From the NCBI GenBank assembly GCA_031284925.1, contig JAITXE010000048.1, positions 1,394-65,393 on the forward strand: a stretch of 64,000 nt of DNA. Direction: 5' to 3'. The translations under genes were made by a program, and so were the position numbers. Numbering within the stretch: position 1 is the first letter of the stretch; each line of letters starts with the position of its first letter. Source of the DNA: Methanobrevibacter sp. (GTDB lineage: Archaea; Methanobacteriota; Methanobacteria; Methanobacteriales; Methanobacteriaceae). Shown piece by piece: positions 5,161 through 61,846 of this stretch. The notes under the pieces are model-generated. The model worked only from the letters and a program-made list of their open reading frames with translations. It did no database searches and was not told where the DNA came from.

Positions 5161-6096
5161 ATGGAAATTTTAAAACCTGATGAGCTTAAAAAAAAGTATA
5201 ACCAGCCATGGGTTGCACCTTATCATAAGGTAGTAACTATGGTTGATGATGAGCTTGTGGAAATTGTAGAATATCATCCATGTATTTCTGGTTCGCATTG
5301 GATTGTTCATCAATATAAAAATAGTAGCAAACTTATTAAATCAGCTTATAGAGATGGAAATAAACAAGTCTTTTTAGCAAAAATTGGCAAATCTCCTATT
5401 GACTTAAAAGCAAGCATAAATGCTGCAGGAATAGATGAAATAGTTGTTGAAGATAATAATGTTAAGGTTACCCATAGTGGACTGGCTGGAGCTGGTGTTG
5501 GAGCTGGCATTTGTCGTGGTATGGCAGAGGGTGTGAAATATATTGAACATGTAACTGTTGGTGGTGGCTCTAAACTTGGTAAGGCAGTAGTGGTAACTGA
5601 AAAAATGGAAAAAATCGTCATTGGAATAGATGATACTGATACAAAAGATGAAGGTGCAACATGGACAACAGCACACAACATCGCAACTCAAATTCAAAAA
5701 GAGGGATTTGAGTACTTAGACCATACAATAGTTCAACTCTATCCACATAATCCAAATAAAACCCAAAATTGTGTATCAATAGCATTAACATTTGCCGTGA
5801 AAACGGAAGATAAAGAAAATCTCATAAATAGAATAGTCGAACTCTTAAAAGAAGATACTCTTTCTGATAAAACTTCAATAGCTATTTTAGAAGGTATAAA
5901 AATTCCTAAAAAATTAAGAGAATATTCAATTAATGTAAAAACAAGAATGGTATCTATTGAGGAAGCAGAAAGTATAGCTAAAGAGTTACAAATTAAAATA
6001 ATAGCTGTAACAGGAGATAATGGTAAGATTGGAGCATTGGCGGCTCTTGGTCTTTATAATGATCTAGAAGAAGCTGTTAAAATTTATTATGATTAA
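5161..6096 (+). CDS. Methanogen-conserved protein whose C-terminal half is a paralog of the TiaS N-terminal DDTD kinase-like domain (possibly methanogenesis marker protein 11)
   Basis: IGIDDTDTKDEGATWTTAH...QLYPHNPNKTQNCVSIAL...SIEEAESIAKE...GKIGALAALG aligns by eye with IGIDDTDSPYGMCTTF...RLNPFARFKTRGNGAVSF...TIEEAEKFATE...GIIGSVAAIG of the TiaS gene in this same window. The marker-11 name is recollection only. Confidence 0.6.
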   Translation: MEILKPDELKKKYNQPWVAPYHKVVTMVDDELVEIVEYHPCISGSHWIVHQYKNSSKLIKSAYRDGNKQVFLAKIGKSPIDLKASINAAGIDEIVVEDNNVKVTHSGLAGAGVGAGICRGMAEGVKYIEHVTVGGGSKLGKAVVVTEKMEKIVIGIDDTDTKDEGATWTTAHNIATQIQKEGFEYLDHTIVQLYPHNPNKTQNCVSIALTFAVKTEDKENLINRIVELLKEDTLSDKTSIAILEGIKIPKKLREYSINVKTRMVSIEEAESIAKELQIKIIAVTGDNGKIGALAALGLYNDLEEAVKIYYD

Positions 6097-8607: not shown

Positions 8608-9861
8608 TTAAATATTCATTCTTATCAGTGGTTTAGATAGATGTCTTCTTGATGATATTGGAGTTTCATAATAGTTATTTTCAATTAATTCTCTTTCACA
8701 TGTAATAATTATTCTCTCTCCATCAGGAAGTTTAAACCCACATTTTTTACATTTAAATCCTTTTAATTTGCCTGCTGATGTCATAGTTTTACCACACTCA
8801 CATTTTGGATTTTTAAAGATTTGTTTCTTCTTTAATGATAATATTTTAATCTTCTCAAGATTGAATGTTCCACCACAACCAATTCCCCCATATACTTGAA
8901 TCTCATCTCCTTTAATGAGTTTTTTTATAATATGTCTAAAGTCTTTAGTTGGTTCATATGCTGCAAGTTCTATCTCACCACTTCCATCCATTAATTTAAA
9001 AAAAACATGCCCTCCTTCAATAACATGAGGATCGTTTTTAACTTCTCCATGCACAATATAAGAACCATATTTTTCCATTTCAGATATTTTATCTATTTTT
9101 TGAAGATGCATATCCGTGTGTTGGTTTGTTTTAAATATACAATAGTTATTAAGTTGTTCATATATTTTAACAATGTTTTTAGCTATTTCAAGTATTTCAG
9201 GAGATTCACCTCTAATTCCATAAAGAACTGGGCAGGGAGTATTTGGTTTAATTGCCATGTAATCATTATCAATATTTTCAAAAGTTTTAGGATAAGTTTT
9301 TTCATTCATTAAAACTACTGAATCATAATCTATGAGTCTTTTTTTAGCATAATTTTCTTTTATTCTATAAGTGATTAATTCGTATGTGTAATCTTTTAAA
9401 GGACATCCAATAGCTGCCACAGAACCAATAATTCCTCTCCCATTTTTAATTTTATGAATTTCCATCCCATTTTCAGTTGCAAATTTTTCAGCTTCTTCAA
9501 TTGTTATAATTGAATGGATTGCTTTAAGAGAATATTTTTCCATTTCTTTAGTAATTTCCCCATTATAAAATACAATTCCTGGGTTTGTATTTTCACAATC
9601 TACCCTTGATAAGAGTTTAACTTTATCAAGAACTATTTTCTTAATTAAGTCTTCATCCTTGCAGACAGCTATTTTAAATGAAACTGCTCCATTTCCACGT
9701 GTTTTAAATCTTGCAAATGGATTTAATCTTATAATATGGGGGAATCCTTCAATTTTAATTCCATTCTTTTTTAATTCAGTTATTATCTCTGATGCAAGAA
9801 ATGTTGTACACATTCCATATGGAGAGTCCGTATCATCAATTCCAATGTATAAGAAACTTAT
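8608..9861 (-). CDS. tiaS: tRNA(Ile2) 2-agmatinylcytidine synthetase TiaS
   Basis: The track ORF starts at MCTTF..., but the frame is open upstream and encodes ISFLYIGIDDTDSPYG before that Met, which is the conserved TiaS N-terminal motif. The C-terminal Zn ribbon is CECGKTMTSAGK...KCKKCG. The 5' end is drawn at ATA 9861-9859, because no in-frame ATG/GTG/TTG is available from 9900 down to the ATG at 9813 (hand-read). Confidence 0.8.
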   Translation of the reverse strand: MSFLYIGIDDTDSPYGMCTTFLASEIITELKKNGIKIEGFPHIIRLNPFARFKTRGNGAVSFKIAVCKDEDLIKKIVLDKVKLLSRVDCENTNPGIVFYNGEITKEMEKYSLKAIHSIITIEEAEKFATENGMEIHKIKNGRGIIGSVAAIGCPLKDYTYELITYRIKENYAKKRLIDYDSVVLMNEKTYPKTFENIDNDYMAIKPNTPCPVLYGIRGESPEILEIAKNIVKIYEQLNNYCIFKTNQHTDMHLQKIDKISEMEKYGSYIVHGEVKNDPHVIEGGHVFFKLMDGSGEIELAAYEPTKDFRHIIKKLIKGDEIQVYGGIGCGGTFNLEKIKILSLKKKQIFKNPKCECGKTMTSAGKLKGFKCKKCGFKLPDGERIIITCERELIENNYYETPISSRRHLSKPLIRMNI

Positions 9862-43189: not shown

Positions 43190-44314
43190 GTGAGATTGAA
43201 TAATCTACCTACTGAACAAGTACGTCATAGTTCTAATGTTTCTATTGCTAATGTGCAAGTGAAAAAAGAAGCAAAAGCTATTGTTATTGAAGAAGCTGGA
43301 TTTCCTTTTAAATTACCTATTATGGATATTTCAAACTTAGAAGTAAAAAATAATGAACTTTTTGAGGAATATGCTAAGGAACAATGGTTAGGTTCTATTG
43401 CTAAAGAAGGAAATTATCTTTTTGATCAAAGAATACTTCCAGATTATGCTTTTAAGATTATAACAGCATACCCTAATAATTCAATGATTGGTGAGAATAC
43501 TTCAATTCTTCTTCTATCTAAGGATGAAAAAGATGAGAATATAAAAGCAGATAACTCTAAACTAAATTTAAATGATGTCATTGGTCAAGAAAAAGCTAAA
43601 ACAAAGTGTAAAATTATCATGAAATATCTTGAAACCCCTGAAAAATTTGCAGACTGGGCTCCACGTAACATATTATTTTATGGAATTTCAGGCACAGGTA
43701 AAACAATGTTAGCTAAAGCATTATCTAATGAGCTTGATGTTCCATTATACTTAGTAAAAGCAACAAATCTAATCGGCGATCATGTTGGAAATGGTTCATC
43801 TTCAATACATGAATTGTTTGAAAAAGCAGGGAAAAAATCACCATCTGTTATATTCATTGATGAAATTGATGCTATTGGACTTCATAGAAAATACCAATCA
43901 ATAAGAGGGGATGTTTCAGAAATTGTAAATGCTCTTTTAACTGAAATGGATGGAATATCTAAGAATGAAGGAATTATAACAATTGCAGCAACTAATAATC
44001 CAGAACAATTAGATCATGGAATTAGAAGTAGGTTTGAAGATGAGTTTGAATTCACCCTCCCAAATGAAAAGGACAGAATAACTATTTTTAATAAGTATAT
44101 GGATAGTTTACCATTATCTATTGAACCATCAGCTAAAAAATTAGCCAATATGACTAAAGGATTTTCAGGAAGAGACATTAAAGAAAAAATACTTAAATCC
44201 TCACTTCATAAAGCAATCTCAGATGAGGTAGAAACAATTACTATGGCACATGTTAAATATGCATTAGATAATTATTATAAAGAAAATAACTCTCCAAAGA
44301 ACATGTTTGCATGA
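43190..44314 (+). CDS. AAA-family ATPase (single AAA module, classical clade)
   Basis: GTG start. Walker A GISGTGKTMLAKA, Walker B VIFIDEIDAIG, second region of homology ATNNPEQLDHGIRSRF. Confidence 0.85.
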   Translation: MRLNNLPTEQVRHSSNVSIANVQVKKEAKAIVIEEAGFPFKLPIMDISNLEVKNNELFEEYAKEQWLGSIAKEGNYLFDQRILPDYAFKIITAYPNNSMIGENTSILLLSKDEKDENIKADNSKLNLNDVIGQEKAKTKCKIIMKYLETPEKFADWAPRNILFYGISGTGKTMLAKALSNELDVPLYLVKATNLIGDHVGNGSSSIHELFEKAGKKSPSVIFIDEIDAIGLHRKYQSIRGDVSEIVNALLTEMDGISKNEGIITIAATNNPEQLDHGIRSRFEDEFEFTLPNEKDRITIFNKYMDSLPLSIEPSAKKLANMTKGFSGRDIKEKILKSSLHKAISDEVETITMAHVKYALDNYYKENNSPKNMFA

Positions 44315-45727: not shown

Positions 45728-46681
45728 TTATATTGGTTCAACACTAATTAACTTACAATGACAATAACATTCTGCAGTTGTATATCCTGGAGGCCAACAA
45801 GTTCCCATTATTAATCCATTACTTTTTTTGTCAAATTGAATCTTGTTAGTTTCATAATCATATTTTATATCATCAGTTGCAACCTTTTCCACTTCATATG
45901 TATATTTCTTTTGAGTTAAAAAATCATTAATATAAACCTTATCTCCTTTTACAAGTCTATCTAATTTCTTAAATGGTGCTGAATAAGTAACATGATGTCC
46001 TAACAATCCAACTGTCCCTTTTTCTCCAGGATAAGAACTTATATTATAATGATATACACCGTTTATTGCATTAACTGTATCATATCTTATATCCCATTTA
46101 CAATCTAATTTTGGTATTGTGAGAGTTGCAAATATAAATTTTTCCTTAAGTGATGTAAATTGGATATTTAAGCTGTCTCTGATTAAATCTATAGTATTAG
46201 ATTTTTTTCCAGTTAAAATGATACTATAAACTGCATTGTTTTTATAAACCCATAGCTCCCTTATTAGCATAGAACTATCATTTTTTAGTTTATAAGTATT
46301 GTCATAAACATCAGTATTCTTTACTGTGTATTTTTTATTATCTATTAAATCTATCTTACTTTCACTTCCGTTCCATTCTTCAATGATAAAATTTTTGGGA
46401 TCATGACCTGGTGGATTATACTGTCTATTTATAGTAATAAATTCATTTTCATATGGATTAATTAGTTTACTAATATAATTATTTACAGTAAAATTATTTG
46501 TAGTGGAGTTTTCTAATTTAAATACATTAGGATATTTGAATGATATTTCTTCTTTGGAAAAATTATTTAAATCTTGTTTGTTAAAAGCAGTATATTCTTG
46601 ATCTAAACATGATAATGACCCAAGATATATTGAAATTACTCCAAGTAGTACAATTATTGCTATCATATATTTTATTTGCAT
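45728..46681 (-). CDS. Membrane-anchored sortase-family transpeptidase-like protein
   Basis: N-terminal TM segment. The C-terminal domain has LLGHHVTYSAPFKKLDRLVKGDKVYINDFLTQKKYTYEV...LIMGTCWP, matching the sortase His and TLxTC-type Cys motifs. I could not find a clear conserved Arg. Confidence 0.55.
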   Translation of the reverse strand: MQIKYMIAIIVLLGVISIYLGSLSCLDQEYTAFNKQDLNNFSKEEISFKYPNVFKLENSTTNNFTVNNYISKLINPYENEFITINRQYNPPGHDPKNFIIEEWNGSESKIDLIDNKKYTVKNTDVYDNTYKLKNDSSMLIRELWVYKNNAVYSIILTGKKSNTIDLIRDSLNIQFTSLKEKFIFATLTIPKLDCKWDIRYDTVNAINGVYHYNISSYPGEKGTVGLLGHHVTYSAPFKKLDRLVKGDKVYINDFLTQKKYTYEVEKVATDDIKYDYETNKIQFDKKSNGLIMGTCWPPGYTTAECYCHCKLISVEPI

Positions 46682-46898
46682 TTTAAATCATTACTCTTAT
46701 CATTAATATTTTAATTTAAATCTTGTTTAATTTATTCATTGCTTATTTAATTTAGCATATCTTATTAATTTAATTGGTTTATTAAACCATTTATAAGTAT
46801 ACATTCAGTTTTAAAATAATAATAAATGTTAGCTTATACATATATAAATATGTTTCGCTAAAATTTAGCTTTTCAAAAATGAAGAGCAATATATCTTA

Positions 46899-47513
46899 TC
46901 AAAAAATATTGAAAATAATCCATGATGCATACTTTCTTAAATGATTAATTAATTTAAATCCAGATTTACTAGTTAAAAATCGTGAAAATGCAATGAATAG
47001 TTTTAATAGATTTATTTGAAAAACAAGTTCCGTGTTAAAATCAAAAATTTCCTTAGTAAAATCTGCTTTAACATTTAAATTACATTTATTGTAGAAATTA
47101 AGAATTGTAAAAATATTATTGACATTAGCAAAACTAATTGCAGTATTAACAGGACTATAAAAACCAAAAACAATATTTCCATTTAACTTTTCTAATTTAA
47201 TAGATTTAATGAAAATTGTAAGTAATTTAGCTATTTTAAAAAGATTGTTTTTAATTAAAGGTAAAGTTTCTCTTAAAAGGGTTAACTTATTAGAAGATTT
47301 ATTTAAATCCTTTTTATCTTTTAGTTGGGATTCTTTATTTTTTGAAATTCTTCTAGAATAAATCTTTAAAAATAAGAATTTAATCTCAACATATAACTCA
47401 AAATTTTCTTTTTCTTTTTCTGATTTAATATATATTTTAATTCCAACAGCTAAAACAATAACAAATAAAAAGAATATAATCACTATAAAAATAATATTTA
47501 AAATACTGAACAT
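46899..47513 (-). CDS. DUF2953 (YtfI-like) membrane protein
   Basis: ATG 47513 (MFSILNIIFIV...) is preferred over TTG 47522. It has an N-terminal TM segment followed by a Lys-rich body. It sits directly downstream (minus strand) of a GerW/YtfJ-like gene, as in the Firmicutes ytfIJ pairing. The family call is from memory. Confidence 0.5.
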   Translation of the reverse strand: MFSILNIIFIVIIFFLFVIVLAVGIKIYIKSEKEKENFELYVEIKFLFLKIYSRRISKNKESQLKDKKDLNKSSNKLTLLRETLPLIKNNLFKIAKLLTIFIKSIKLEKLNGNIVFGFYSPVNTAISFANVNNIFTILNFYNKCNLNVKADFTKEIFDFNTELVFQINLLKLFIAFSRFLTSKSGFKLINHLRKYASWIIFNIF

Positions 47514-47645
47514 GCAATCCAATCCTTTTAAAGTTTAAAACATGCTGTTTGTATTAATAAAAAACTTGTTTTATAAAATTAATTGAAATAATATATAAAT
47601 AAAATTAAATAATTTCACAAAAGACTAAATATCAAATTAAGTAGA

Positions 47646-48038
47646 TTATTCATTAGTTTCATTTATATTTGAATTTGAAGTATCATATTTAAAATTAGTT
47701 AAAATTTCTTTTATTAAATCTGTAAGAACAAGCCCTAAATCTGTAATAATTTTGCTACTATTATCAATCTCTGATAAACTAAGAACTTGAACTAGATCAG
47801 AATCTTCTGGTTTTTTATTGATAACTACTATGGATATTGGTTCTATTCCTACACCAGCACCAAAAGCTTCCCCATTATTACTTTCATCATTTCCATCTAC
47901 TCCAGCAAAACCAAATCCTACTTTCATAAAAGGAATTAATAATTTATCCTCTGTTTCAATAGGTTTTCCAATGAAATTATCTGCTTTTATCAAGTCTTGT
48001 ATCTTTGAAATTGAATCATTAATTGCTTTTTCACTCAT
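47646..48038 (-). CDS. GerW/YtfJ-family protein
   Basis: 130 aa. NFIGKPIETEDKLLIPFMKVGFGFAGVDGN....GAGVGIEPISIVVINK matches the GerW/YtfJ glycine-rich beta core. Confidence 0.65.
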   Translation of the reverse strand: MSEKAINDSISKIQDLIKADNFIGKPIETEDKLLIPFMKVGFGFAGVDGNDESNNGEAFGAGVGIEPISIVVINKKPEDSDLVQVLSLSEIDNSSKIITDLGLVLTDLIKEILTNFKYDTSNSNINETNE

Positions 48039-53462: not shown

Positions 53463-53522
53463 CTATCAAATCATAAAAAAATTTATTTTATTTTTAATTA
53501 ATAATTTAAATAATTTAAATTT

Positions 53523-53945
53523 ACCCCAGTCAATTTATCTTTATCAACAATACTCAATATGAAATTAATAAGGAAAACCTATAAATAAAACTATTGAAAT
53601 TTCAGGTATTAAAATAGTTATTATAACTAAAATGAACACAATAAGTGCCATTAATCTTTTCATGGATTTTTCTTTGTAATGTTTTATCACTTACAACTGT
53701 TTGCAAGTAAAACAAATGAGATATTAACGAGTAAAAAGAGAATATCGTATGAGAAAACAGGAACTATCTCATGGAGATTTTCAAGAACCCACTTAGTAAA
53801 AACAGGCATTAAAGCTAAAAAAATAAAAACAATGATTCATCCACATAATACTAGAATTTAACGTTTCTAAAGAGTTTAATAGGTTATTCCAAATGATTCC
53901 AACAATTAAAAAGGTAATGTCAAAAATTTGAGTGATAACACTTGT
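53523..53945 (-). pseudogene. Decayed paralog of the TMEM175-like channel gene at 55057-55674
   Basis: The DNA aligns with 55070-55520 at about 85% identity. This includes a 72-nt perfectly identical run (53702-53773 = 55290-55361), plus indels and frame breaks. Confidence 0.75.
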
Positions 53946-54479
53946 TATATACTACAAAAATATTTTTGGAACTGATGAAAGAATAGATAGAGCTTTGATG
54001 TTTGATAGGCTTTGGTGGGTTACGAAATAGAAAACTGAAATCTTAAATTTATAATTTTGACTTTCTCACCCAAATTTTTGACATTGCCATAATTGAAACT
54101 ATTATTATATATTGTTATTAAAAATAAAGAAAACTTAGCTTTTCTAACTTGTAATGGCCTTTTTAAGCTTAGAAATTTTATTTGTTTCCCTCCAAACAGC
54201 TTCAATTAACTTCTCTTTCTCATAACCATCTAACTTTTCAGGAGTAATAACTTTTTCTACCATTTAATCCATCATTTATAGTTTAAAACATGTATTTTAT
54301 AATATAATTAACTTTCTTAATATACAATAGATTTTTTTAATTAATATTTATTTATTAAAAGTGCATGAAAAGTAATAGTTTTAATTAAATACAAGTCCTT
54401 TAAAATGATTTTTGCATTAAATTATTAAACAAGTTGTCTATTTCTATTTTAGACTGCTTTTGATTTATTTTATTTTTTC

Positions 54480-54890
54480 TACTGCTTCTACTATTTTAGC
54501 AAATTTATTTTGAAGTTCTAGGAGGTAATGGTATTTTTAAGTTTAGAACATCAATATTATTTACAGCAGGATAACTTGCTCCTTTACATTGATTTACCAA
54601 AGATTGAATGAAGTAGTTACTACGAGCTATTAATAATAAGTATTCTGAGAGAATTTTTTATTATTTGCTCTTAAAACACAAAACCCTATTGATGCTATTT
54701 GATTATCATATTTAGAATGAACTAAACAAAATGCATTTAAATTTGCTCTAACGGTTGAAATTAAGAAATCATTCTCTTTAGTTTTTTGTTTGGTGCTGCT
54801 TGGAGCATCTTTACATAAATATTTAGAACTTAAAATTATTTTGCTAACATTAGAATCAATTGAAGAAATATCTATATAATCAAAGACTTC
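54480..54890 (-). pseudogene. Type I restriction enzyme specificity subunit (HsdS) relic: one target-recognition domain, frameshifted
   Basis: The reverse strand reads FDYIDISSIDSNVSKIILSSKYLCKDAPSSTKQKTKENDFLISTVRANLNAFCLVHSKYDNQIASIGFCVLRANNKKF..., then a shift to ...FIQSLVNQCKGASYPAVNNIDVLNLKIPLPP..., then ...LQNKFAKIVEAVEKI. Confidence 0.7.
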
Positions 54891-55056: not shown

Positions 55057-55674
55057 TTAATATAATTTAAATTTGTCCACAGCCAATTTATCTTTATCAA
55101 CAATACTTAACAATGAACTTATAATAGGAAAACCTATAAATAAAAATATTGAAATTTTAGGTACTAAAATAGTTATTATAAGTAAAAGAAAGACAACCAG
55201 TGCCATTATAATTAAACTAATGACGGATTTTTCATCTTGATGATTCTTTTCATGGATTCTGTGTAATGTTTCATCACTTACAACTGCTTTTGCAAGTAAA
55301 ACAAATGAGATATTAACGAGTAAAAAGAGAATATCGTATGAGAAAACAGGAACTATCTCATGGGGATTTTCAAGAACCCATTTAGTAAAAATAGGCATTA
55401 AAGCTAAAAAATACAAGAATAAATGATTCATCCATATAATACGAGAATTTAATGCTTCTAAAGAGTTTAATAGAAAGTTATGTTTATTCCAAAATGATCC
55501 AACAATTAAAAAACTCGTAAAAAAAATAATAATAGATTGTAAAAGATTTATAATATCCTTAAAGTTGAATGTGTTTGATAAAGGTATTTCTAGTACCATA
55601 ATAGTGATTATTATTGCAATAACCCCATCTGAAAAAAAATCAAACCTTTCTTTAGAATATGCCAGAATAATCAA
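55057..55674 (-). CDS. TMEM175/DUF1211-family membrane protein (putative K+ channel)
   Basis: 205 aa. The N-terminus KERFDFFSDGVIAIIITIMVLEI matches the RxxxFSDGVFAIxxTLLVLE signature. About 6 TM segments. Confidence 0.75.
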   Translation of the reverse strand: MIILAYSKERFDFFSDGVIAIIITIMVLEIPLSNTFNFKDIINLLQSIIIFFTSFLIVGSFWNKHNFLLNSLEALNSRIIWMNHLFLYFLALMPIFTKWVLENPHEIVPVFSYDILFLLVNISFVLLAKAVVSDETLHRIHEKNHQDEKSVISLIIMALVVFLLLIITILVPKISIFLFIGFPIISSLLSIVDKDKLAVDKFKLY

Positions 55675-55815: not shown

Positions 55816-56874
55816 TTATTTAAAATTAAATAAACTTGTTTGACTACTTTTCGCCTTTTCTATATTTGTAAGTTTTTCAGTTTTATTTAAATTATCCTTT
55901 TCATTAATCGCATCTTTAGAATCATTATTTAAATTATCCTTTTTATTAATTGTATCTTTAGATAAATTAGAATCAATTTTTATTGGAATTGCTCCCTTTT
56001 TTATTAATTCTTGATTTCCTTTATAATCAATATCAACACAGTATAATTTTGTGTATTTCTTATTTAAATTTGCAATAGCTCCAGCCCATGTTCCCCCTTT
56101 TTCATGGTCTGATTTAATTACAATAGCTTGCTTAGAACATATATAAATAAATTTATTTCTTTCCATTGCAGTATACTTATAGGATCTATCGGAAGGTAAA
56201 GCTGCTGAAATTAGAAGTAATTTATTATCTTGAATTGCTTTAGCCGTATTAGTCTTTTTTATTCTTTTTAACATTGAACCAGCTAAAAATTCCACTCCAA
56301 AAGAATTATTATTTAATGATTCATTTATGCAAATAGAATCTATCCCTTCAGCTCCGCCTGAAACTATTCCTGTTTTATTAAAATTTTTAACTAAATCTTT
56401 TGTTATTTTAATATCATTATCATCAACATTTCTAGATCCAAGAAAACCTATTAAACTTTTATTTAACAAGTTTATATCTCCAGTATAATAAAATAAAGGA
56501 GGTGCATTCTCTTTTAACTTTTCATGAATTTTTTTAGGGTAACCTGAATCTGAGAGAGTAACAATTTTTAAACCAATGTTGTTTAATTTTTCAACTTTAA
56601 AAAAGATACTGATTTTTCTTGATATTAATGATTTTAGTCTTTTTAAATCTATTAAAACTTTAGATTTTCTTTTTCTTTTAATGGGTAAATCTATTTTTGA
56701 TTTAAATTCTTCATCGGAAAAATCAAATAATTGATAAAGCTCAATATTTTTTTTATCTAATTCTATGAGTAAATCCCTGAATTCTGCATTGGATAATGGT
56801 TTTGATGTTTGAGATATTTCTAATTTACTGCAGAAAACTATTATGGCTTTTGAATTTTCTTTATTTATATTCAT
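55816..56874 (-). CDS. DprA/Smf-like (SLOG/Rossmann) protein; candidate PsyrA-type partner of the upstream helicase
   Basis: 352 aa. GYPKKIHEKLKENAPPLFYYTGDINLL, IGFLGSRNV, IVSGGAEGIDSICINESL (the canonical motif is SGxAxGID), ERNKFIYICS and GGTWAGAIANL. The C-terminal tail has a 14-aa tandem repeat. Confidence 0.8.
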   Translation of the reverse strand: MNINKENSKAIIVFCSKLEISQTSKPLSNAEFRDLLIELDKKNIELYQLFDFSDEEFKSKIDLPIKRKRKSKVLIDLKRLKSLISRKISIFFKVEKLNNIGLKIVTLSDSGYPKKIHEKLKENAPPLFYYTGDINLLNKSLIGFLGSRNVDDNDIKITKDLVKNFNKTGIVSGGAEGIDSICINESLNNNSFGVEFLAGSMLKRIKKTNTAKAIQDNKLLLISAALPSDRSYKYTAMERNKFIYICSKQAIVIKSDHEKGGTWAGAIANLNKKYTKLYCVDIDYKGNQELIKKGAIPIKIDSNLSKDTINKKDNLNNDSKDAINEKDNLNKTEKLTNIEKAKSSQTSLFNFK

Positions 56875-56915
56875 TATATCATTATATTCATTAATTTTAA
56901 TATAAAATATTTAAC

Positions 56916-59012
56916 TTAAGAATCATCAGCTAATGTATAAGGAATTACCTTTGAAACACCAAATTTTTCCCTAAGAATACTACCACAAACAGTTAAAGTC
57001 CATCGTGAATCCACAGTATCATCAATTAACAATAACTTTTTAGGAATTTTTTCTTTATTATTTTTATTATGGGAAAAAGAGTCTAAAGCATTTTTACATA
57101 GAAATGATGAATTTTCCATATCTTTTTGAGGTTTCACATCACTTTTTATTAAAACATCATAAAAACCAATATCTAAACCATCAGCAACCTTTTTTGCAAA
57201 TTCTTTTACAATATCACTTCGCAGTGATGGTACAGGAACAACTCCTTGAATTTTTTCTTCTTTGACAATGTCCTTTAAAATCTCAGAAGTTTTTTTAACT
57301 AATTTATCTGAAAATGCACCATATTCTGTTTTTCCAACTTTAACCAGTTCTCCAAAACCATCATCTCCATACTTTGATAAAGAAATTCCTGGTTTATTTA
57401 TAAGTCTAATCTTTGAATATTTAGTACTATCAGTTTTTGCCCACATTTTTCTTGGATTTATTTCTAAATAAAGAGTATTAAGAAATTCTTGTGCTAACTC
57501 TATATTCTCATAATCAATATCCTTAGAAACTATATCTTTTCCTAAGCAGTTAGAACATTTTCCACAATCTTCATTTGAATAATCATCCAATGCATTTAAT
57601 AAAAATTTGCTGTAGCATTTATCTGTAGATATAAACTCATTTACTTGTTTGTTTTCTTTTCTACGAATTTTAGTTATTTCATCATAATGTTTATGAGGGT
57701 AGGAATAATTTTTTGGACTTATATGGTACTTATATTTGTCTTTTATAATATAACCATCATTACAAAGAAAATCTATGGCTTTATAAACAACTTTTTTTCT
57801 TGAATTAATCTTAGCCATTATTTCACTTATTTTTAAACCTGAATCACTATTTTCAAGCGAATCTAAAATTGTTGAAAAAATTTCTTCTTTTGGAAAAGCA
57901 TTATCTATAAAATGATTTAATATTTCATCATCTTCCTTATCTCCTACTAAAAGTACTATACTCGCATGATTAATGTTTCTTCCAGCTCTACCAATTTGTT
58001 GATAATATGATACTAAATTTTGGGGTTTTTGAAAATGAATAACAAAACTTATATCTCCTTTATCATAACCCATACCTAATTTAATAGTAGCAACAATGAC
58101 TTTAATTTCATTATTCATGAATTCTTTTTCAGTTAAAGCTGTGTCACCTTTTCCAGAATAGTATGGTCTGGCTGAAATACCATTTTCTACTAAAAACATG
58201 GCTAAGTTTTCACAGTCTCTTTTAGTTAAACAATATATTATTCCAGTACCAGGGAACTTATTAATGTTTTCAAGAATCCAAATATATTTGGAGGCTTTAC
58301 CATTTAAATGCACAATATCTATGGCTAATGATTCTCTAAAAAGAGATCCTCTAAAGTTAACAATCTCATTTCCAAATTGTGATTCTAAATCCTTAACTAC
58401 TCGATCACTGGCTGTTGCTGTGGTACATAATACTGGTACATTATTGGGTAATTGATTAATGATTTTATGAAGTTTACCATATTTCAATCTAAAATCATGA
58501 CCCCAATCAGACATACAATGTGCTTCATCAACAACAATAAAACCAACATCTTTAAGGTTGGCTTGAAATTGTTCTGTAAATAATGATTCAGGTGTTATGA
58601 ATAGTAAATCTACTTCATCCCTCATTACAGAGTCCATTATCCTCTTTTTATTCCGTCCTGAAACTGATGAATTAAAAACTTTAGCATTTAATCCAATATT
58701 TTTAGCTTGTTCTAATTGATTATCCATTAAAACTAAGAGAGGACTCATAACCAAAGTAAATCCTCTATTTAATTCTCTAATAATCTTACATGCAACAAAA
58801 TATAAAAAACTTTTGCCCCAACCAGTTCTTTGAACAACTAATGTTCTTTGATTTGTTAAAATAGCATTAATTGCTTCTAATTGACCTTCTCTAAACTTAG
58901 TTGGTTTTCCACAAATCTTGTTTAACAGTTCTTGAGCATAAGATTCAATATCCTCTTTAGAAAAAGAACCTATTTTTTCATCTGTGTTGATAATCTCTGT
59001 TTTCTTAGACAT
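56916..59012 (-). CDS. RecQ-family SF2 helicase fused to a C-terminal ComFC-like (type I PRTase-fold) domain; candidate PsyrT/RqlH-type protein
   Basis: 698 aa. FREGQLEAINAIL, Walker A RTGWGKSFLY, VVDEAHCMSDWGHDFRLKY, QQIGRAGR and the Zn motif CGKCSNC. The C-terminus VPVPSLRSDIVKEFAKKVA...KKLLLIDDTVDSRWTLTVCG looks like a PRPP-loop-like element, degenerate relative to VDDVxTTGxT. Confidence 0.85.
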   Translation of the reverse strand: MSKKTEIINTDEKIGSFSKEDIESYAQELLNKICGKPTKFREGQLEAINAILTNQRTLVVQRTGWGKSFLYFVACKIIRELNRGFTLVMSPLLVLMDNQLEQAKNIGLNAKVFNSSVSGRNKKRIMDSVMRDEVDLLFITPESLFTEQFQANLKDVGFIVVDEAHCMSDWGHDFRLKYGKLHKIINQLPNNVPVLCTTATASDRVVKDLESQFGNEIVNFRGSLFRESLAIDIVHLNGKASKYIWILENINKFPGTGIIYCLTKRDCENLAMFLVENGISARPYYSGKGDTALTEKEFMNNEIKVIVATIKLGMGYDKGDISFVIHFQKPQNLVSYYQQIGRAGRNINHASIVLLVGDKEDDEILNHFIDNAFPKEEIFSTILDSLENSDSGLKISEIMAKINSRKKVVYKAIDFLCNDGYIIKDKYKYHISPKNYSYPHKHYDEITKIRRKENKQVNEFISTDKCYSKFLLNALDDYSNEDCGKCSNCLGKDIVSKDIDYENIELAQEFLNTLYLEINPRKMWAKTDSTKYSKIRLINKPGISLSKYGDDGFGELVKVGKTEYGAFSDKLVKKTSEILKDIVKEEKIQGVVPVPSLRSDIVKEFAKKVADGLDIGFYDVLIKSDVKPQKDMENSSFLCKNALDSFSHNKNNKEKIPKKLLLIDDTVDSRWTLTVCGSILREKFGVSKVIPYTLADDS

Positions 59013-59126
59013 AGTTTCATAATTAATTTTAGTTTTACTAATAAATTTTAATATATAAAAATCATGATTATTTATATATTATTACTAATATTTGTAGTTA
59101 TTTCATTTTATTATATTATACTATAT

Positions 59127-59211
59127 TAAAACCTATTTTTTTGCAATTTATAAATATTTTAAATTTTACTAAAATTAATAAATAAGAAAATAAGATACAT
59201 TTATAAAAATT
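59127..59211 (-). repeat. Copy 2 of the inverted-repeat pair (both blocks contiguous)
   Basis: 59127-59180 is the exact reverse complement of 27694-27747. 59184-59211 is the reverse complement of 27572-27599. It begins 115 nt upstream of the RecQ-like start at 59012, in the same relative orientation as copy 1 to its gene. Confidence 0.85.
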
Positions 59212-59221
59212 AGTTTTAAAT

Positions 59222-59600
59222 TATAATTGGACTCAAAATATTAGAGATGAAATTAGGCAACTTAAAACTAATCATGGAAATCATGTATTAATTTATCAAT
59301 CAAATAAAACCGATTTAAGATTAATAAATGTTTTAAAAAGGATTAATGAAAACTTTATAATTTATGGATTTGATAAAGAAAGGATAGATGACAATTTAAC
59401 TTTTAGAAAATTTAATGAAACTAAATTATATAATGATTTGAAAGATTCTAAAGCAGTTATAACCAATGAGGGATTTTCATTAATAAGTGAAGCAATCTAT
59501 CTTAAAAAACCCACATATAATATTCCAATTAACGGGTAATTTGAACAATTATTAAATGGATTCTATGTTGAGAAATTAGGTCATGGAATGTAAATCAGGA
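59222..59600 (+). pseudogene. Glycosyltransferase (MJ1255/UDP-glycosyltransferase-like) C-terminal relic
   Basis: ...HVLIYQSNKTDLRLINVLKRINENFIIYGFDKERIDDNLTFRKFNETKLYNDLKDSKAVITNEGFSLISEAIYLKKPTYNIPING[TAA]FEQLLNGFYVEKLGHGM. The N-terminal half is absent, and there is an in-frame TAA where Gln (CAA) is expected. Confidence 0.6.
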
Positions 59601-59962
59601 AATAAGTATTAAAAGCTTAAATAAATTCTTATCTAAACTTCCCAATTTATCAAAAAAATGAAAAACGTGAAAAATACTGATAACTCTAAGTATAATAAAT
59701 AAAATTGAAGAATCTATTGAAAAATATGCTAAAAATTAAATAAATTAAAAAACCATAATAAGTTAAAGAGATATCTACTTATAAAATTAAACATTTCAAT
59801 CATTTTTGTAAATGATTTAGTTTAATATTGAACTATTTTCATCCCTGTTTTAGGTAGAAAAATAAGTACTGCAATTTTTAAAAAAAATTATTCTTCCAAT
59901 ATATTAATTTTGGATTGCTCTATCTATTTATTATTTATATATAATTATAAAAACTATTAACA

Positions 59963-61846
59963 ATGTCAAATGAACTTTTTTGTCCTGATTGTGGAATGCT
60001 AAAAAGCAACTGTATTTGTGGAAAACACAAATCTAACTCCAATAATCGGGGATATGCTAATGCTAAGCATGATACTAGTGAATACTCTGATATAAAACAT
60101 AAACGAAATTCTAATAAAGGACTGTATGCTAATTTTAAGGATAATCCTACGGAAAAAGAATCAAAGACAATAAACTCACAATATTCTATAGAGGAAAATG
60201 TTTTAAATAATAGTCAAATTAATCAGTTAAAGAAAGAGTTCTCACATATTAATGAAGAAATAATTAGAAACTTTCCATTTGATTATCCTCGTAAAGGTCA
60301 GCTTGAAATAATAGCCGATATTGAAAATGCAATAGATAAAGGTTATAAATATGTAATTTTGGAGGCAGGAACAGGAACTGGAAAGTCTGCTATTGCTACA
60401 ACACTTGCAAAAATGTATGCTTCGTCATATATTCTTACAATGACTAAACAACTACAATCTCAATATATGAATGAGTTTAATTTTCCTTTAGTTAAAGGAA
60501 GAAGTAATTTTGATTGTTTAACAGATAATTTTGATTCTACTTGTGATATTGGAGCATGTAAAACAGCACCAAGGTCTAAAAAATTCTTTTGTCGATATGG
60601 AGTAAATCAAAACCCAACACTTGATGGAACAGAGGCTTTTAAGACTGCTTTTGGTTCTAATATTTATTTTAATTCAGGTAATAAATGTAATTATTGGCTT
60701 CAAAAAGCAAATGCTATTAATTCACCTATCACCTTAATGAATTATGATTATGCAATTCTTGAATTTAATTATGTAAACCATTTTGGAAAAAGAGATTTAT
60801 TAATTTTAGATGAAGCACATAATATAGAAGATAAATTAATGAGAATATTGGAATTAAATTTATATAATAAGAGAATAGAAAAAGATATTAATAAAAAATT
60901 AACTAAAGATATTTTATCAAGTGATAATCCAAAAGAGTGGATTTTAGAAATTGAAGCTATTGCAGAGGCATATAATGAAATTTCTTTATCTGATCTTCCA
61001 ATCAATAAAGTGGATAGAATCAGAACCACAACTAAAAGATTAAATCAGTTAAAAGCAAATCTAAAAAAAGAACCAAGGAATTGGGTTATTGATACAAATA
61101 ATGTTGGAGTATCTTTTAAACCACTTCGAATAAATAACTATGCACATGATTATTTACTTGATCACGGGGAAGTTTGTCTATTTTTAAGTGCAACCATACT
61201 CTCTCATACTATGTTTGCTAAATGGTTAGGAATAAAACCAAATGAGATCTATCATATTAAGGTTGATAGTCCATTTCCACCTGATAAAAGACCTATTGAA
61301 TTAACTTTAGCTGGAAAAATGTCTAAAAATAGAATAAAACAAACGGCTCCAAAAACATTAGATATATTAAATAAAATTTTAAAAAAGCATGCTAATGATA
61401 AAGGCTTAATTCATACACACAGTTATAGATGTCAGCAATATATCACAAACAAACTAACAGATTCAAGATTAATATCTCATAGTTCTGCTAATAGAGAAAG
61501 AATATTAGACTATTTTGAAAAAAGTGATGATCCACTCGTTCTTGTAAGTCCATCTATGAGTGAAGGTGTTGATTTACCTTATGATAAATGCAGATTTCAG
61601 GTTATTTACAAGGTTCCATTTCCTTACCTTGGAGATAAGCAAGTTAATCAAAGAAGGAAAAAAGATCAACGCTGGTATTCATATAAAACCGTGATGACTT
61701 TAATGCAAGCTTACGGAAGAGGTATGAGAGCAGAAGATGATTCTTGTCATACATATATACTTGATACAGATATTAAAATCCTCTTTAAAAGCCCAATGTA
61801 TAAATCATTGGTTCCTGAATTTTTTAAAGAAGCTATCATAGAATGA
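59963..61846 (+). CDS. XPD/DinG-family (Rad3-like, Fe-S) SF2 helicase with an N-terminal Zn-ribbon extension
   Basis: 627 aa. The N-terminus is CPDCGMLKSNCICG followed by a low-complexity linker. Walker A is EAGTGTGKSAIA. A 4-Cys cluster region reads NFDCLTDNFDSTCDIGACKTAPRSKKFFC. The DEAH box is LILDEAHNIED. The C-terminus has VSPSMSEGVDLPYDKCRFQVIYKVPFP and QAYGRGMR. Confidence 0.8.
   Translation: MSNELFCPDCGMLKSNCICGKHKSNSNNRGYANAKHDTSEYSDIKHKRNSNKGLYANFKDNPTEKESKTINSQYSIEENVLNNSQINQLKKEFSHINEEIIRNFPFDYPRKGQLEIIADIENAIDKGYKYVILEAGTGTGKSAIATTLAKMYASSYILTMTKQLQSQYMNEFNFPLVKGRSNFDCLTDNFDSTCDIGACKTAPRSKKFFCRYGVNQNPTLDGTEAFKTAFGSNIYFNSGNKCNYWLQKANAINSPITLMNYDYAILEFNYVNHFGKRDLLILDEAHNIEDKLMRILELNLYNKRIEKDINKKLTKDILSSDNPKEWILEIEAIAEAYNEISLSDLPINKVDRIRTTTKRLNQLKANLKKEPRNWVIDTNNVGVSFKPLRINNYAHDYLLDHGEVCLFLSATILSHTMFAKWLGIKPNEIYHIKVDSPFPPDKRPIELTLAGKMSKNRIKQTAPKTLDILNKILKKHANDKGLIHTHSYRCQQYITNKLTDSRLISHSSANRERILDYFEKSDDPLVLVSPSMSEGVDLPYDKCRFQVIYKVPFPYLGDKQVNQRRKKDQRWYSYKTVMTLMQAYGRGMRAEDDSCHTYILDTDIKILFKSPMYKSLVPEFFKEAIIE

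Follow-up and report, generated by a model that had tools for sequence, protein, structure and literature searches.

Does a pair of genes for a RecQ-like helicase fused to a phosphoribosyltransferase (PRTase) and a DprA-like protein, found in a 64,000-nucleotide stretch of Methanobrevibacter sp. DNA (assembly GCA_031284925.1, contig JAITXE010000048.1; this whole stretch is hereafter called the window), form a defence module, or does it serve DNA repair or natural transformation? An earlier note, made from the sequence alone, had proposed either an archaeal PsyrTA module (also known as RqlHI) or a competence-like DNA-processing triad packed into two genes. We conclude, with a probability of about 0.85, that this chromosomal pair is an intact PsyrTA (RqlHI) toxin–antitoxin/abortive-infection module, probably an old acquisition from bacteria.

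The two open reading frames (ORFs) lie on the minus strand, where the ORF at 56916-59012 (698 aa) is followed after 41 nt by that at 55816-56874 (352 aa), and the ORF list bears out this layout as first described. The former is psyrT (rqlH), the toxin gene for a RecQ-family helicase with a C-terminal PRTase, as assigned by PADLOC, NCBIfam and an AlphaFold2 (AF2) model, and the latter is psyrA (rqlI), the gene for a DprA-like antitoxin, as assigned by PADLOC, Pfam and PDB matches. The PADLOC PsyrT profile matched residues 24-696 of the 698-aa protein over its positions 6-683 of 689 (E 5e-226), and the PsyrA profile matched residues 1-332 of the 352-aa protein over its positions 1-326 of 398 (E 1.5e-77, 259 bits). 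Both curated profiles are thus covered, the unmatched end of the PsyrA profile being a winged helix-turn-helix (wHTH) that is dispensable in E. coli RqlI (PMC4670107). The AT-rich spacer of the two genes (56875-56915, minus strand) is a probable operon junction, judged from its sequence, and the terminator scan found no terminator-like site in it.

Russell and Mulvey described RqlH as a RecQ-like helicase that has a PRTase domain at its C-terminus, and RqlI as a DprA-like protein that is encoded directly downstream of RqlH and binds and neutralises it, so that the toxin gene precedes the antitoxin gene (PMC4670107). Millman et al. equated RqlHI with PsyrTA and reported phage protection (10.1101/2022.05.11.491447). 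The pair in the window has each of the corresponding features at the sequence level: a toxin with a RecQ-family helicase core (Pfam, TIGR00614 and Foldseek), a C-terminal PRTase with an acidic motif for binding phosphoribosyl pyrophosphate (PRPP; profile, fold and the invariant D664/D665), a DprA-like partner (COG0758/DNA_processg_A, PF02481), and a toxin gene followed directly, on the same strand, by that of the antitoxin. Profile searches support the helicase, PRTase and DprA domains, in agreement with the folds; furthermore, all of the motifs that the earlier note quoted from the two proteins were found at their residues, with Pfam and PADLOC E values far below chance. The helicase-PRTase fusion to which that note drew attention is therefore real, but it is not novel, since the fusion with its DprA-like partner is the canonical RqlH/RqlI (PsyrT/PsyrA) architecture and already defines RqlH (PMC4670107; 10.1101/2022.05.11.491447). 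The archaeal pair is a cross-domain addition to the known PsyrTA kind, not a new architecture.

Pfam located DEAD at residues 42-208 (1.4e-27), Helicase_C at 247-346 (2.5e-15), HTH_45 at 376-434 and RecQ_Zn_bind at 445-490 (2.1e-5) of PsyrT. The helicase core, delimited by Pfam, alignment and Foldseek, spans residues ~39-360 (57933-58898, minus strand) and contains motif I (TGWGKS, 63-68), motif II (DEAH, 162-165, continuing as CMSDWGHDFR) and motif VI (QQIGRAGR, 338-345), all three of which are invariant in an alignment of 35 sequences (alignment A2). It is followed by a RecQ C-terminal (RQC)-like region, delimited by Pfam and the alignment, at residues ~361-490 (57543-57932, minus strand), with a winged helix and a zinc motif of four cysteines, C466, C483, C486 and C489, the last three within CGKCSNC (483-489); these cysteines are likewise invariant in A2. 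PsyrT scored 261 bits against the cut-off of 219.8 of the NCBIfam model recQ_fam (TIGR00614), and thus passed as a member of this subfamily. An AF2 model of the whole protein, built from the 35-sequence alignment, reached a predicted local distance difference test (pLDDT) of 86.9 and a predicted template modelling score (pTM) of 0.83. When this model was searched with Foldseek, the predicted structure matched the RecQ cores 4tmu, 1oyy and 1oyw (E 1e-26 to 1e-30, target template modelling score (TM) ~0.70), and the superposition of ~476 columns takes in the RQC-like region as well. The complete RecQ core that had been read from the motifs is therefore confirmed by Pfam, by the TIGR00614 cut-off and by the model.

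The C-terminal part of PsyrT, residues ~515-698 (56919-57470, minus strand), is a ComF-like type I PRTase domain according to its profile matches in the PDB and its AF2 domain model, and is the predicted toxic effector. It carries VPVPS at residues 592-596 and the PRPP-binding loop LLLIDDTVDSRWT at residues 660-672 (56997-57035, minus strand; alignment and profile). The Pfam family Pribosyltran stayed below threshold here (E 0.006), and no solved structure covered the C-terminal 200 residues by sequence in the PDB sequence search. A profile of the domain, on the other hand, matched PRPP synthetase 1dkr (E 3.4e-5) exactly on its PRPP loop (DDIIDTAGT), and several purine PRTases as well. The AF2 model of residues 500-698 (pLDDT 86.8) had H. 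pylori ComF (7p0h) as its predicted closest fold (E 5.8e-6, query TM 0.56), followed by adenine PRTases (APRTs) and, at query TM 0.54-0.57, by ShosT (8zvd/8zvc), so the ComF/type I PRTase C-terminus holds at the level of the fold.

The earlier note had also called the PRPP loop degenerate, and this was not borne out. Within DDTVDSRWT, the residues D664, D665, D668, S669, W671 and T672 are invariant in the 35 homologs of A2, the motif recurs in high-GC bacterial homologs with only 36-39% identity, and the profile aligns it with the PRPP loop of 1dkr. Judged by this conservation, the loop differs from the textbook TTGGT loop and yet is a family signature. In E. coli, RqlH toxicity requires the PRTase domain, and the substitution D663A in the PRPP loop abolishes it (PMC4670107). 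PsyrT D665 probably corresponds to this D663, going by the register of the DxVD motif rather than by an alignment with the E. coli sequence. Since the helicase motifs, the zinc cysteines and the PRPP loop are all intact, both genes look functional.

The partner protein PsyrA contains a DprA-type Rossmann domain at residues 98-296 (55987-56583, minus strand; Pfam DNA_processg_A, E 3.3e-30), with GSRNV at 146-150 and SGGAEGID at 172-179. Its PDB matches, at E ~1e-5, are ShosA (9vzo, and 8zva, whose deposited name is 'DNA processing protein DprA') and DprA structures, which agrees with the DprA/Smf-like protein first suggested. The PADLOC ShosA model also matched, but more weakly (8.6e-23; 79 bits, versus 259 for the PsyrA model).

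In place of the wHTH of E. coli-type RqlI, the sequence and the PADLOC coverage reveal a low-complexity tail at residues ~305-352 (55819-55962, minus strand), whose last eight residues, 345-352, read QTSLFNFK (55819-55842, minus strand). This tail also holds an imperfect tandem repeat, INKKDNLNNDSKDA / INEKDNLNKTEK, at residues ~306-335 (window 55870-55960, minus strand). The PsyrA family falls into two groups, a long class ending in a wHTH, like E. coli RqlI, and a short class that often ends in Q-[L/M]-[S/E/D/T]-L-F-[D/E]. A strict Q..LF stands within the final 15 residues in 37 of 149 PsyrA representatives (proteins P0363-P0511), but in only 7 of 3530 other 15-residue windows of the same proteins (0.2%; Fisher p 8e-47). 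We take QL[SD]LF to be the bacterial β-clamp-binding consensus, which the tail motif fits, and QTSLFNFK also fits the Q-x-x-L-x-x-F of the PCNA-interacting protein (PIP) box, up to position 7. Archaea have RadA and PCNA in place of RecA and the β clamp, and to our knowledge the archaeal host has no β clamp. A clamp link of the PsyrA tail motif was not mentioned in the literature searched. We raise the tentative and rather doubtful idea that PsyrA may be a sliding-clamp client, whereby the antitoxin, and with it the RecQ-PRTase toxin, would be held at replication forks and PsyrTA would monitor the state of replication or the replication intermediates of viruses, the archaeal tail having been retuned to PCNA. 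By analogy with the ShosA tail, a role as a degron would be equally plausible.

The two genes are inherited together among the homologs. Of the 16 fetched loci with both a full-length PsyrT homolog and sequence downstream of it, 15 carry a PsyrA homolog directly behind the toxin gene, and the identities of toxin and antitoxin to the window pair fall in parallel across the loci, from PsyrT 55%/PsyrA 37% (L008), 53%/40% (L009) and 47%/42% (L025) to 40%/40% (L017), 39%/32% (L004) and 36%/28% (L003). The lone exception, L001, is a high-GC contig labelled 'uncultured bacterium' with a toxin gene without PsyrA, and thus resembles the Gram-positive genomes that carry RqlH only (PMC4670107). Five full-length PsyrTA pairs were found on IMG/VR viral contigs. 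At L017 (1932-9346 of IMG/VR UViG_3300010365_002308, GC 29%, classed viral), two large serine recombinases are encoded directly upstream of the pair, an example of a PsyrTA module riding a mobile element. At L025 (4932-13404, NCBI metagenome-assembled genome (MAG) GCA_028748445.1, GC 22.9%), it has RmuC, an antitoxin of the SocA_Panacea/MqsA type and a UvrD-like helicase of 1069 aa on its flanks, a neighbourhood that looks like a defence island. The low-GC homolog contigs L017, L025 and L029 were not counted as archaeal.

The window itself is archaeal, since it encodes an archaeosine tRNA-guanine transglycosylase (ArcTGT), UPF0146, a PRS2-type AAA protein and TiaS. For its ArcTGT, Methanobrevibacter relatives reach 68-85% identity, and the closest with a name come from insect- or termite-gut lineages; the flanking Rad3/DinG-like helicase is conserved genus-wide at 63-75%. 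In contrast to these housekeeping genes, with 63-85% identity in congeners, the best relatives reach only 55% for PsyrT (among 5.8 billion protein clusters) and 44% for PsyrA (among 1.84 billion representatives). The pair is thus accessory in the genus, not core, a conclusion that is well supported. Beside the Rad3/DinG-like helicase gene, used as an anchor, psyrTA was absent in four Methanobrevibacter congeners; as there is no conservation whatever between the anchor neighbourhoods, this comparison demonstrates no more than the absence of psyrTA beside the anchor and does not expose a clean empty site. The searches and the four congener neighbourhoods together indicate that the pair is not a universal syntenic core of the genus, as a housekeeping RecQ would be. 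Scans that took one genome for each GTDB species, and JGI metagenomes besides, brought up only distant bacterial homologs at 28-41% identity, with neither a close copy nor a second archaeal one among them; these scans used exact 8-mer patterns of a single protein, by which copies at 50-60% identity could be missed. A DefenseFinder census of M. intestini does not list PsyrTA (PMC13078230), and no explicit count of PsyrTA in archaea was found in the literature and supplements searched.

The pair probably came from bacteria in an old cross-domain acquisition, as its sequence relationships suggest. The few PsyrT relatives with a named source are Eubacteriales or Ruminococcus MAGs, and one contig has bacterial neighbours of the LysR/LacI type. 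In a neighbour-joining tree, the 119 best hits to the PsyrT of the window form one clade, and the window protein is sister to all of it, on a long branch. The GC content at third codon positions (GC3) of the pair is 0.13-0.14, equal to that of the host genes, whereas the nearest homolog contigs have 37-45% GC; the acquisition is therefore either old or from an unsampled AT-rich donor.

Close to the pair, several genes are in decay. A TMEM175-type K+ channel gene is intact at 55057-55674 (minus strand; Pfam TMEM175, 4.9e-22), and a frameshifted partial duplicate of it, recognised by direct repeats and broken ORFs, lies at 53514-53927 (minus strand); the direct repeat families D1-D6 and D15 that link the two copies are 75-98% identical and spaced 1553-1600 nt. 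Between the two copies stands a frameshifted pseudogene for a type I restriction-modification (R-M) specificity subunit, HsdS (54403-54890, minus strand). Pfam gave no match to its raw frames, while the joined frames gave E 9e-32 with 5ybb and 3okg, which are structures of S subunits; neither hsdM nor hsdR was seen near it. On the other side, a 5'-truncated glycosyltransferase pseudogene (59210-59653, plus strand; PF13528 Glyco_trans_1_3, E 5.3e-35) abuts the psyrT upstream region, matches only positions 182-318 of the 322 of its profile and contains in-frame stops. The upstream region of psyrT starts exactly where the 5' half of the pseudogene is lacking, suggesting that an insertion or rearrangement destroyed the gene. 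The R-M relic, as a single HsdS pseudogene, the duplicated channel gene and the truncated neighbour reported in the earlier note were thus all recovered, but its repeat-bounded upstream region was not convincing: the flanking inverted repeats are weak and AT-rich, as chance gives in AT-rich DNA, and the search for element boundaries found no integrase, tRNA, Rfam element or convincing flanking direct repeat. The promoter scan pointed to TTTATATA at 59052-59059 (minus strand), 40-47 nt upstream of the psyrT ATG, as a weak candidate for an archaeal TATA box; it occurs 32 times in the window versus 32.7 expected, so its position is the sole argument for this reading, and all counts of the promoter and terminator scans were at chance level in this DNA of 25% GC. 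The location of the pair in a patch of gene decay supports a variable region and, weakly, a defence island.

Among characterised systems, RqlH/RqlI of the extraintestinal pathogenic E. coli strain F11 is the counterpart, with the RecQ core, the zinc/winged-helix region and the C-terminal PRTase in the same order, the PRPP loop DD-x-V-D-S-x-W-T, and a DprA-like partner encoded behind the toxin gene on the same strand after a short gap. The pair in the window differs from it in its archaeal host, in its identity of at most 55% (toxin) and 44% (antitoxin) to any known member, and in a PsyrA of the short class, which has the low-complexity tail ending in QTSLFNFK and no C-terminal wHTH. ShosTA shares with the pair a PRTase-fold effector and a DprA-like antitoxin with an N-terminal helical domain, a Rossmann domain and a disordered C-terminal tail. 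However, ShosT lacks a RecQ helicase and has, at its N-terminus, a domain of the pyrophosphatase type instead (PMC11961720), and ShosA neutralises indirectly via DNA repair and RecA (PMC11961720, PMC12961424), whereas RqlI binds RqlH (PMC4670107). We rejected the identification of the pair as ShosTA, given that the toxin is a RecQ fusion, that no ShosT was among the 25 best PADLOC hits and that the ShosA score falls far below that of PsyrA.

An assignment of PsyrT as the housekeeping RecQ was also rejected. In the model, the helicase lobes, the zinc region and the winged helix superpose on the bacterial RecQ structures 1oyw/1oyy (E. coli RecQ, TIGR01389) with a root mean square deviation of 3.6-3.7 Å over 476 columns, but the predicted PRTase stands where the HRDC domain would be, and the gene is not conserved in the host genus. 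The scores were 296 versus 640 bits for TIGR01389 and 234 versus 1015 bits for PRK11057, Pfam found no HRDC domain and our searches found no Methanobrevibacter ortholog. The C-terminal domain shares with ComFC the pattern Q..M.N....N..F with the DD loop behind it, besides the best structural match 7p0h, but the likeness is at the level of the fold (17% identity), the fusion to a RecQ helicase sets the domain apart, and the N-terminal zinc finger of ComFC was not found. DpdF of the 7-deazaguanine DNA modification system (Dpd) was rejected as well: NF041063 gave 152 bits versus a cut-off of 550, the PADLOC DpdF profile covers the helicase core only and scores below PsyrT, and Pfam and PADLOC scans of the neighbourhood found no dpd genes near the pair.

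How would such a module act in the archaeon? In PsyrT, a RecQ-type 3'-5' DNA helicase core with ATPase, zinc and winged-helix parts would be joined to a ComF-like PRTase effector, and, by analogy with E. coli RqlH and ShosT, the PRTase domain would bind PRPP. Unrestrained, it would upset nucleotide and DNA metabolism, leading to DNA damage and replication arrest that would stop both the cell and the virus; the helicase part would position the PRTase activity on DNA or hold it in check there. PsyrA, as a DprA-like binder of single-stranded DNA (ssDNA), would bind PsyrT and silence it. Infection would then free the toxin in one of two ways: a labile antitoxin would be lost, or viral ssDNA or replication intermediates would titrate it. 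For comparison, ShosT is a PRPP-dependent toxin with ShosA as its DprA-like antitoxin, the trigger of ShosTA is host shut-off combined with a labile C-terminus of the antitoxin, and its neutralisation involves RecA (PMC11961720, PMC12961424). Toxicity through the PRTase loop, binding and neutralisation by the antitoxin, and phage protection would thus carry over from experiments on bacterial homologs, and by the same analogy the pair may act against archaeal viruses in its Methanobrevibacter host upon a trigger of this kind.

Several points weigh against a PsyrTA module at work in this host. The ShosTA antitoxin needs bacterial RecA (PMC12961424), and in archaea, which lack RecA, the regulation may be wired differently or have been lost in part. 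RqlH is found without RqlI in many Gram-positive bacteria (PMC4670107), so the helicase can have a role other than that of a toxin. The host-like GC3 implies long residence and, with it, possible domestication for another function. Finally, no other PADLOC system was found within ~12 kb of the pair, so its surroundings, with their one HsdS pseudogene, are not a rich defence island; of the defence-favouring context proposed in the earlier note, the HsdS pseudogene stands, but the support that it lends is modest.

One alternative is that the genes are a domesticated DNA-repair pair, in which a RecQ-like helicase and a DprA-like mediator would serve fork or recombination repair with no toxin–antitoxin or antiviral role. 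The RecQ core with all its ATPase and zinc motifs intact would suit this alternative, as would the clamp-binding-like motif of the PsyrA tail, typical of replication and repair factors, and the long retention implied by GC3; moreover, DprA-like proteins load recombinases, ShosA promotes recombination (PMC11961720), and most Gram-positive bacteria have RqlH on its own (PMC4670107). We nevertheless consider a repair pair unlikely: unlike housekeeping repair genes, the pair was absent from other Methanobrevibacter in every search, PsyrT misses the RecQ equivalog cut-off and the HRDC domain was not found, the PRPP loop that determines toxicity is strictly conserved, and homologs travel on viral contigs and mobile elements. 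That the genes are a functional toxin–antitoxin pair but a selfish one, kept only because its loss kills the cell and of no antiviral benefit in the host, strikes us as less likely still. PsyrTA was first found as a toxin–antitoxin pair in a shotgun-cloning screen, as cited in 10.1101/2022.05.11.491447, and here it sits among pseudogenes (HsdS, the TMEM175 copy and the truncated glycosyltransferase), with no neighbouring defence genes found by PADLOC. Bacterial homologs, however, protect against phage (10.1101/2022.05.11.491447), the window shows no backbone of a plasmid or element that addiction would benefit, and addiction and defence are not mutually exclusive.

The least probable of the explanations, in our view a very remote one, is that of a competence-type module for ssDNA processing, in which ComFA-like helicase, ComFC-like and DprA functions would be carried by two genes for natural transformation. 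It draws on ComF/ComFC (7p0h), the solved structure that the C-terminal domain matches best, on a weak match of that domain to the NCBIfam ComF model (E 0.008) and on a partner with a DprA fold. The scores, however, fall widely short of the cut-offs, with 16 versus 233.55 bits for ComF and 84 versus 191 bits for the DprA equivalog, and the PsyrT and PsyrA models fit far better. In addition, the helicase is of the RecQ family, with no ComFA model among the matches listed (25 of 36 NCBIfam families), Pfam found no DNA-uptake genes among most of the large ORFs of the window, and the family is experimentally a toxin–antitoxin and defence pair (PMC4670107). The competence triad that the earlier note had offered as its second option is hence not supported, its likeness to ComFC being one of fold only. 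We accordingly retain the PsyrTA module as the reading of this pair.

Elsewhere in the window, the gene at 59963-61846 (plus strand) encodes a Rad3/DinG/XPD-like helicase of 627 aa whose N-terminus bears a Cys-rich zinc ribbon, and it matched the PADLOC model 'typeIV_DinG' at 7.5e-85. Since it is a genus-wide core gene, this match to DinG of type IV CRISPR is likely a false positive of defence annotation. Similarly, the PRS2-type AAA+ ATPase at 43190-44314 (plus strand) gave strong PADLOC matches to IetA and TRIP13 (6e-42), which, since no IetS partner turned up, probably reflect generic AAA similarity. Three genes on the minus strand look bacterial, encoding a protein with a sortase domain (45728-46681), one with DUF2953 (46899-47522) and one of the Spore_YtfJ family (47646-48038). 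The sortase-domain, DUF2953 and Spore_YtfJ families are typical of Firmicutes, and the stretch 45728-48038 may be a further horizontal acquisition. Two ORFs with TiaS (agmatidine synthetase) domains were seen, at 5161-6096 (plus strand) and 8608-9813 (minus strand); one has the full domain set, while the other is shorter, with parts of TCKD and FLD only, and may be a paralog or a relic.

These results place PsyrTA/RqlHI, a system so far studied only in bacteria, in a gut methanogen, with both genes and their catalytic motifs intact. For annotation they carry the warning that the "RecQ" of this pair is not the housekeeping helicase. The conserved clamp-like C-terminal motif of PsyrA is a cheap and testable lead; if the clamp reading were true, a bacterial immune module would have been retuned to the archaeal replisome, with the motif kept through a long residence. 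The archaeal copy is also a natural means of testing whether a PRPP-dependent toxin with its DprA-like antitoxin can work with RadA and PCNA in the replication and recombination machinery of archaea, and whether gut methanogens borrow antiviral modules from bacteria.

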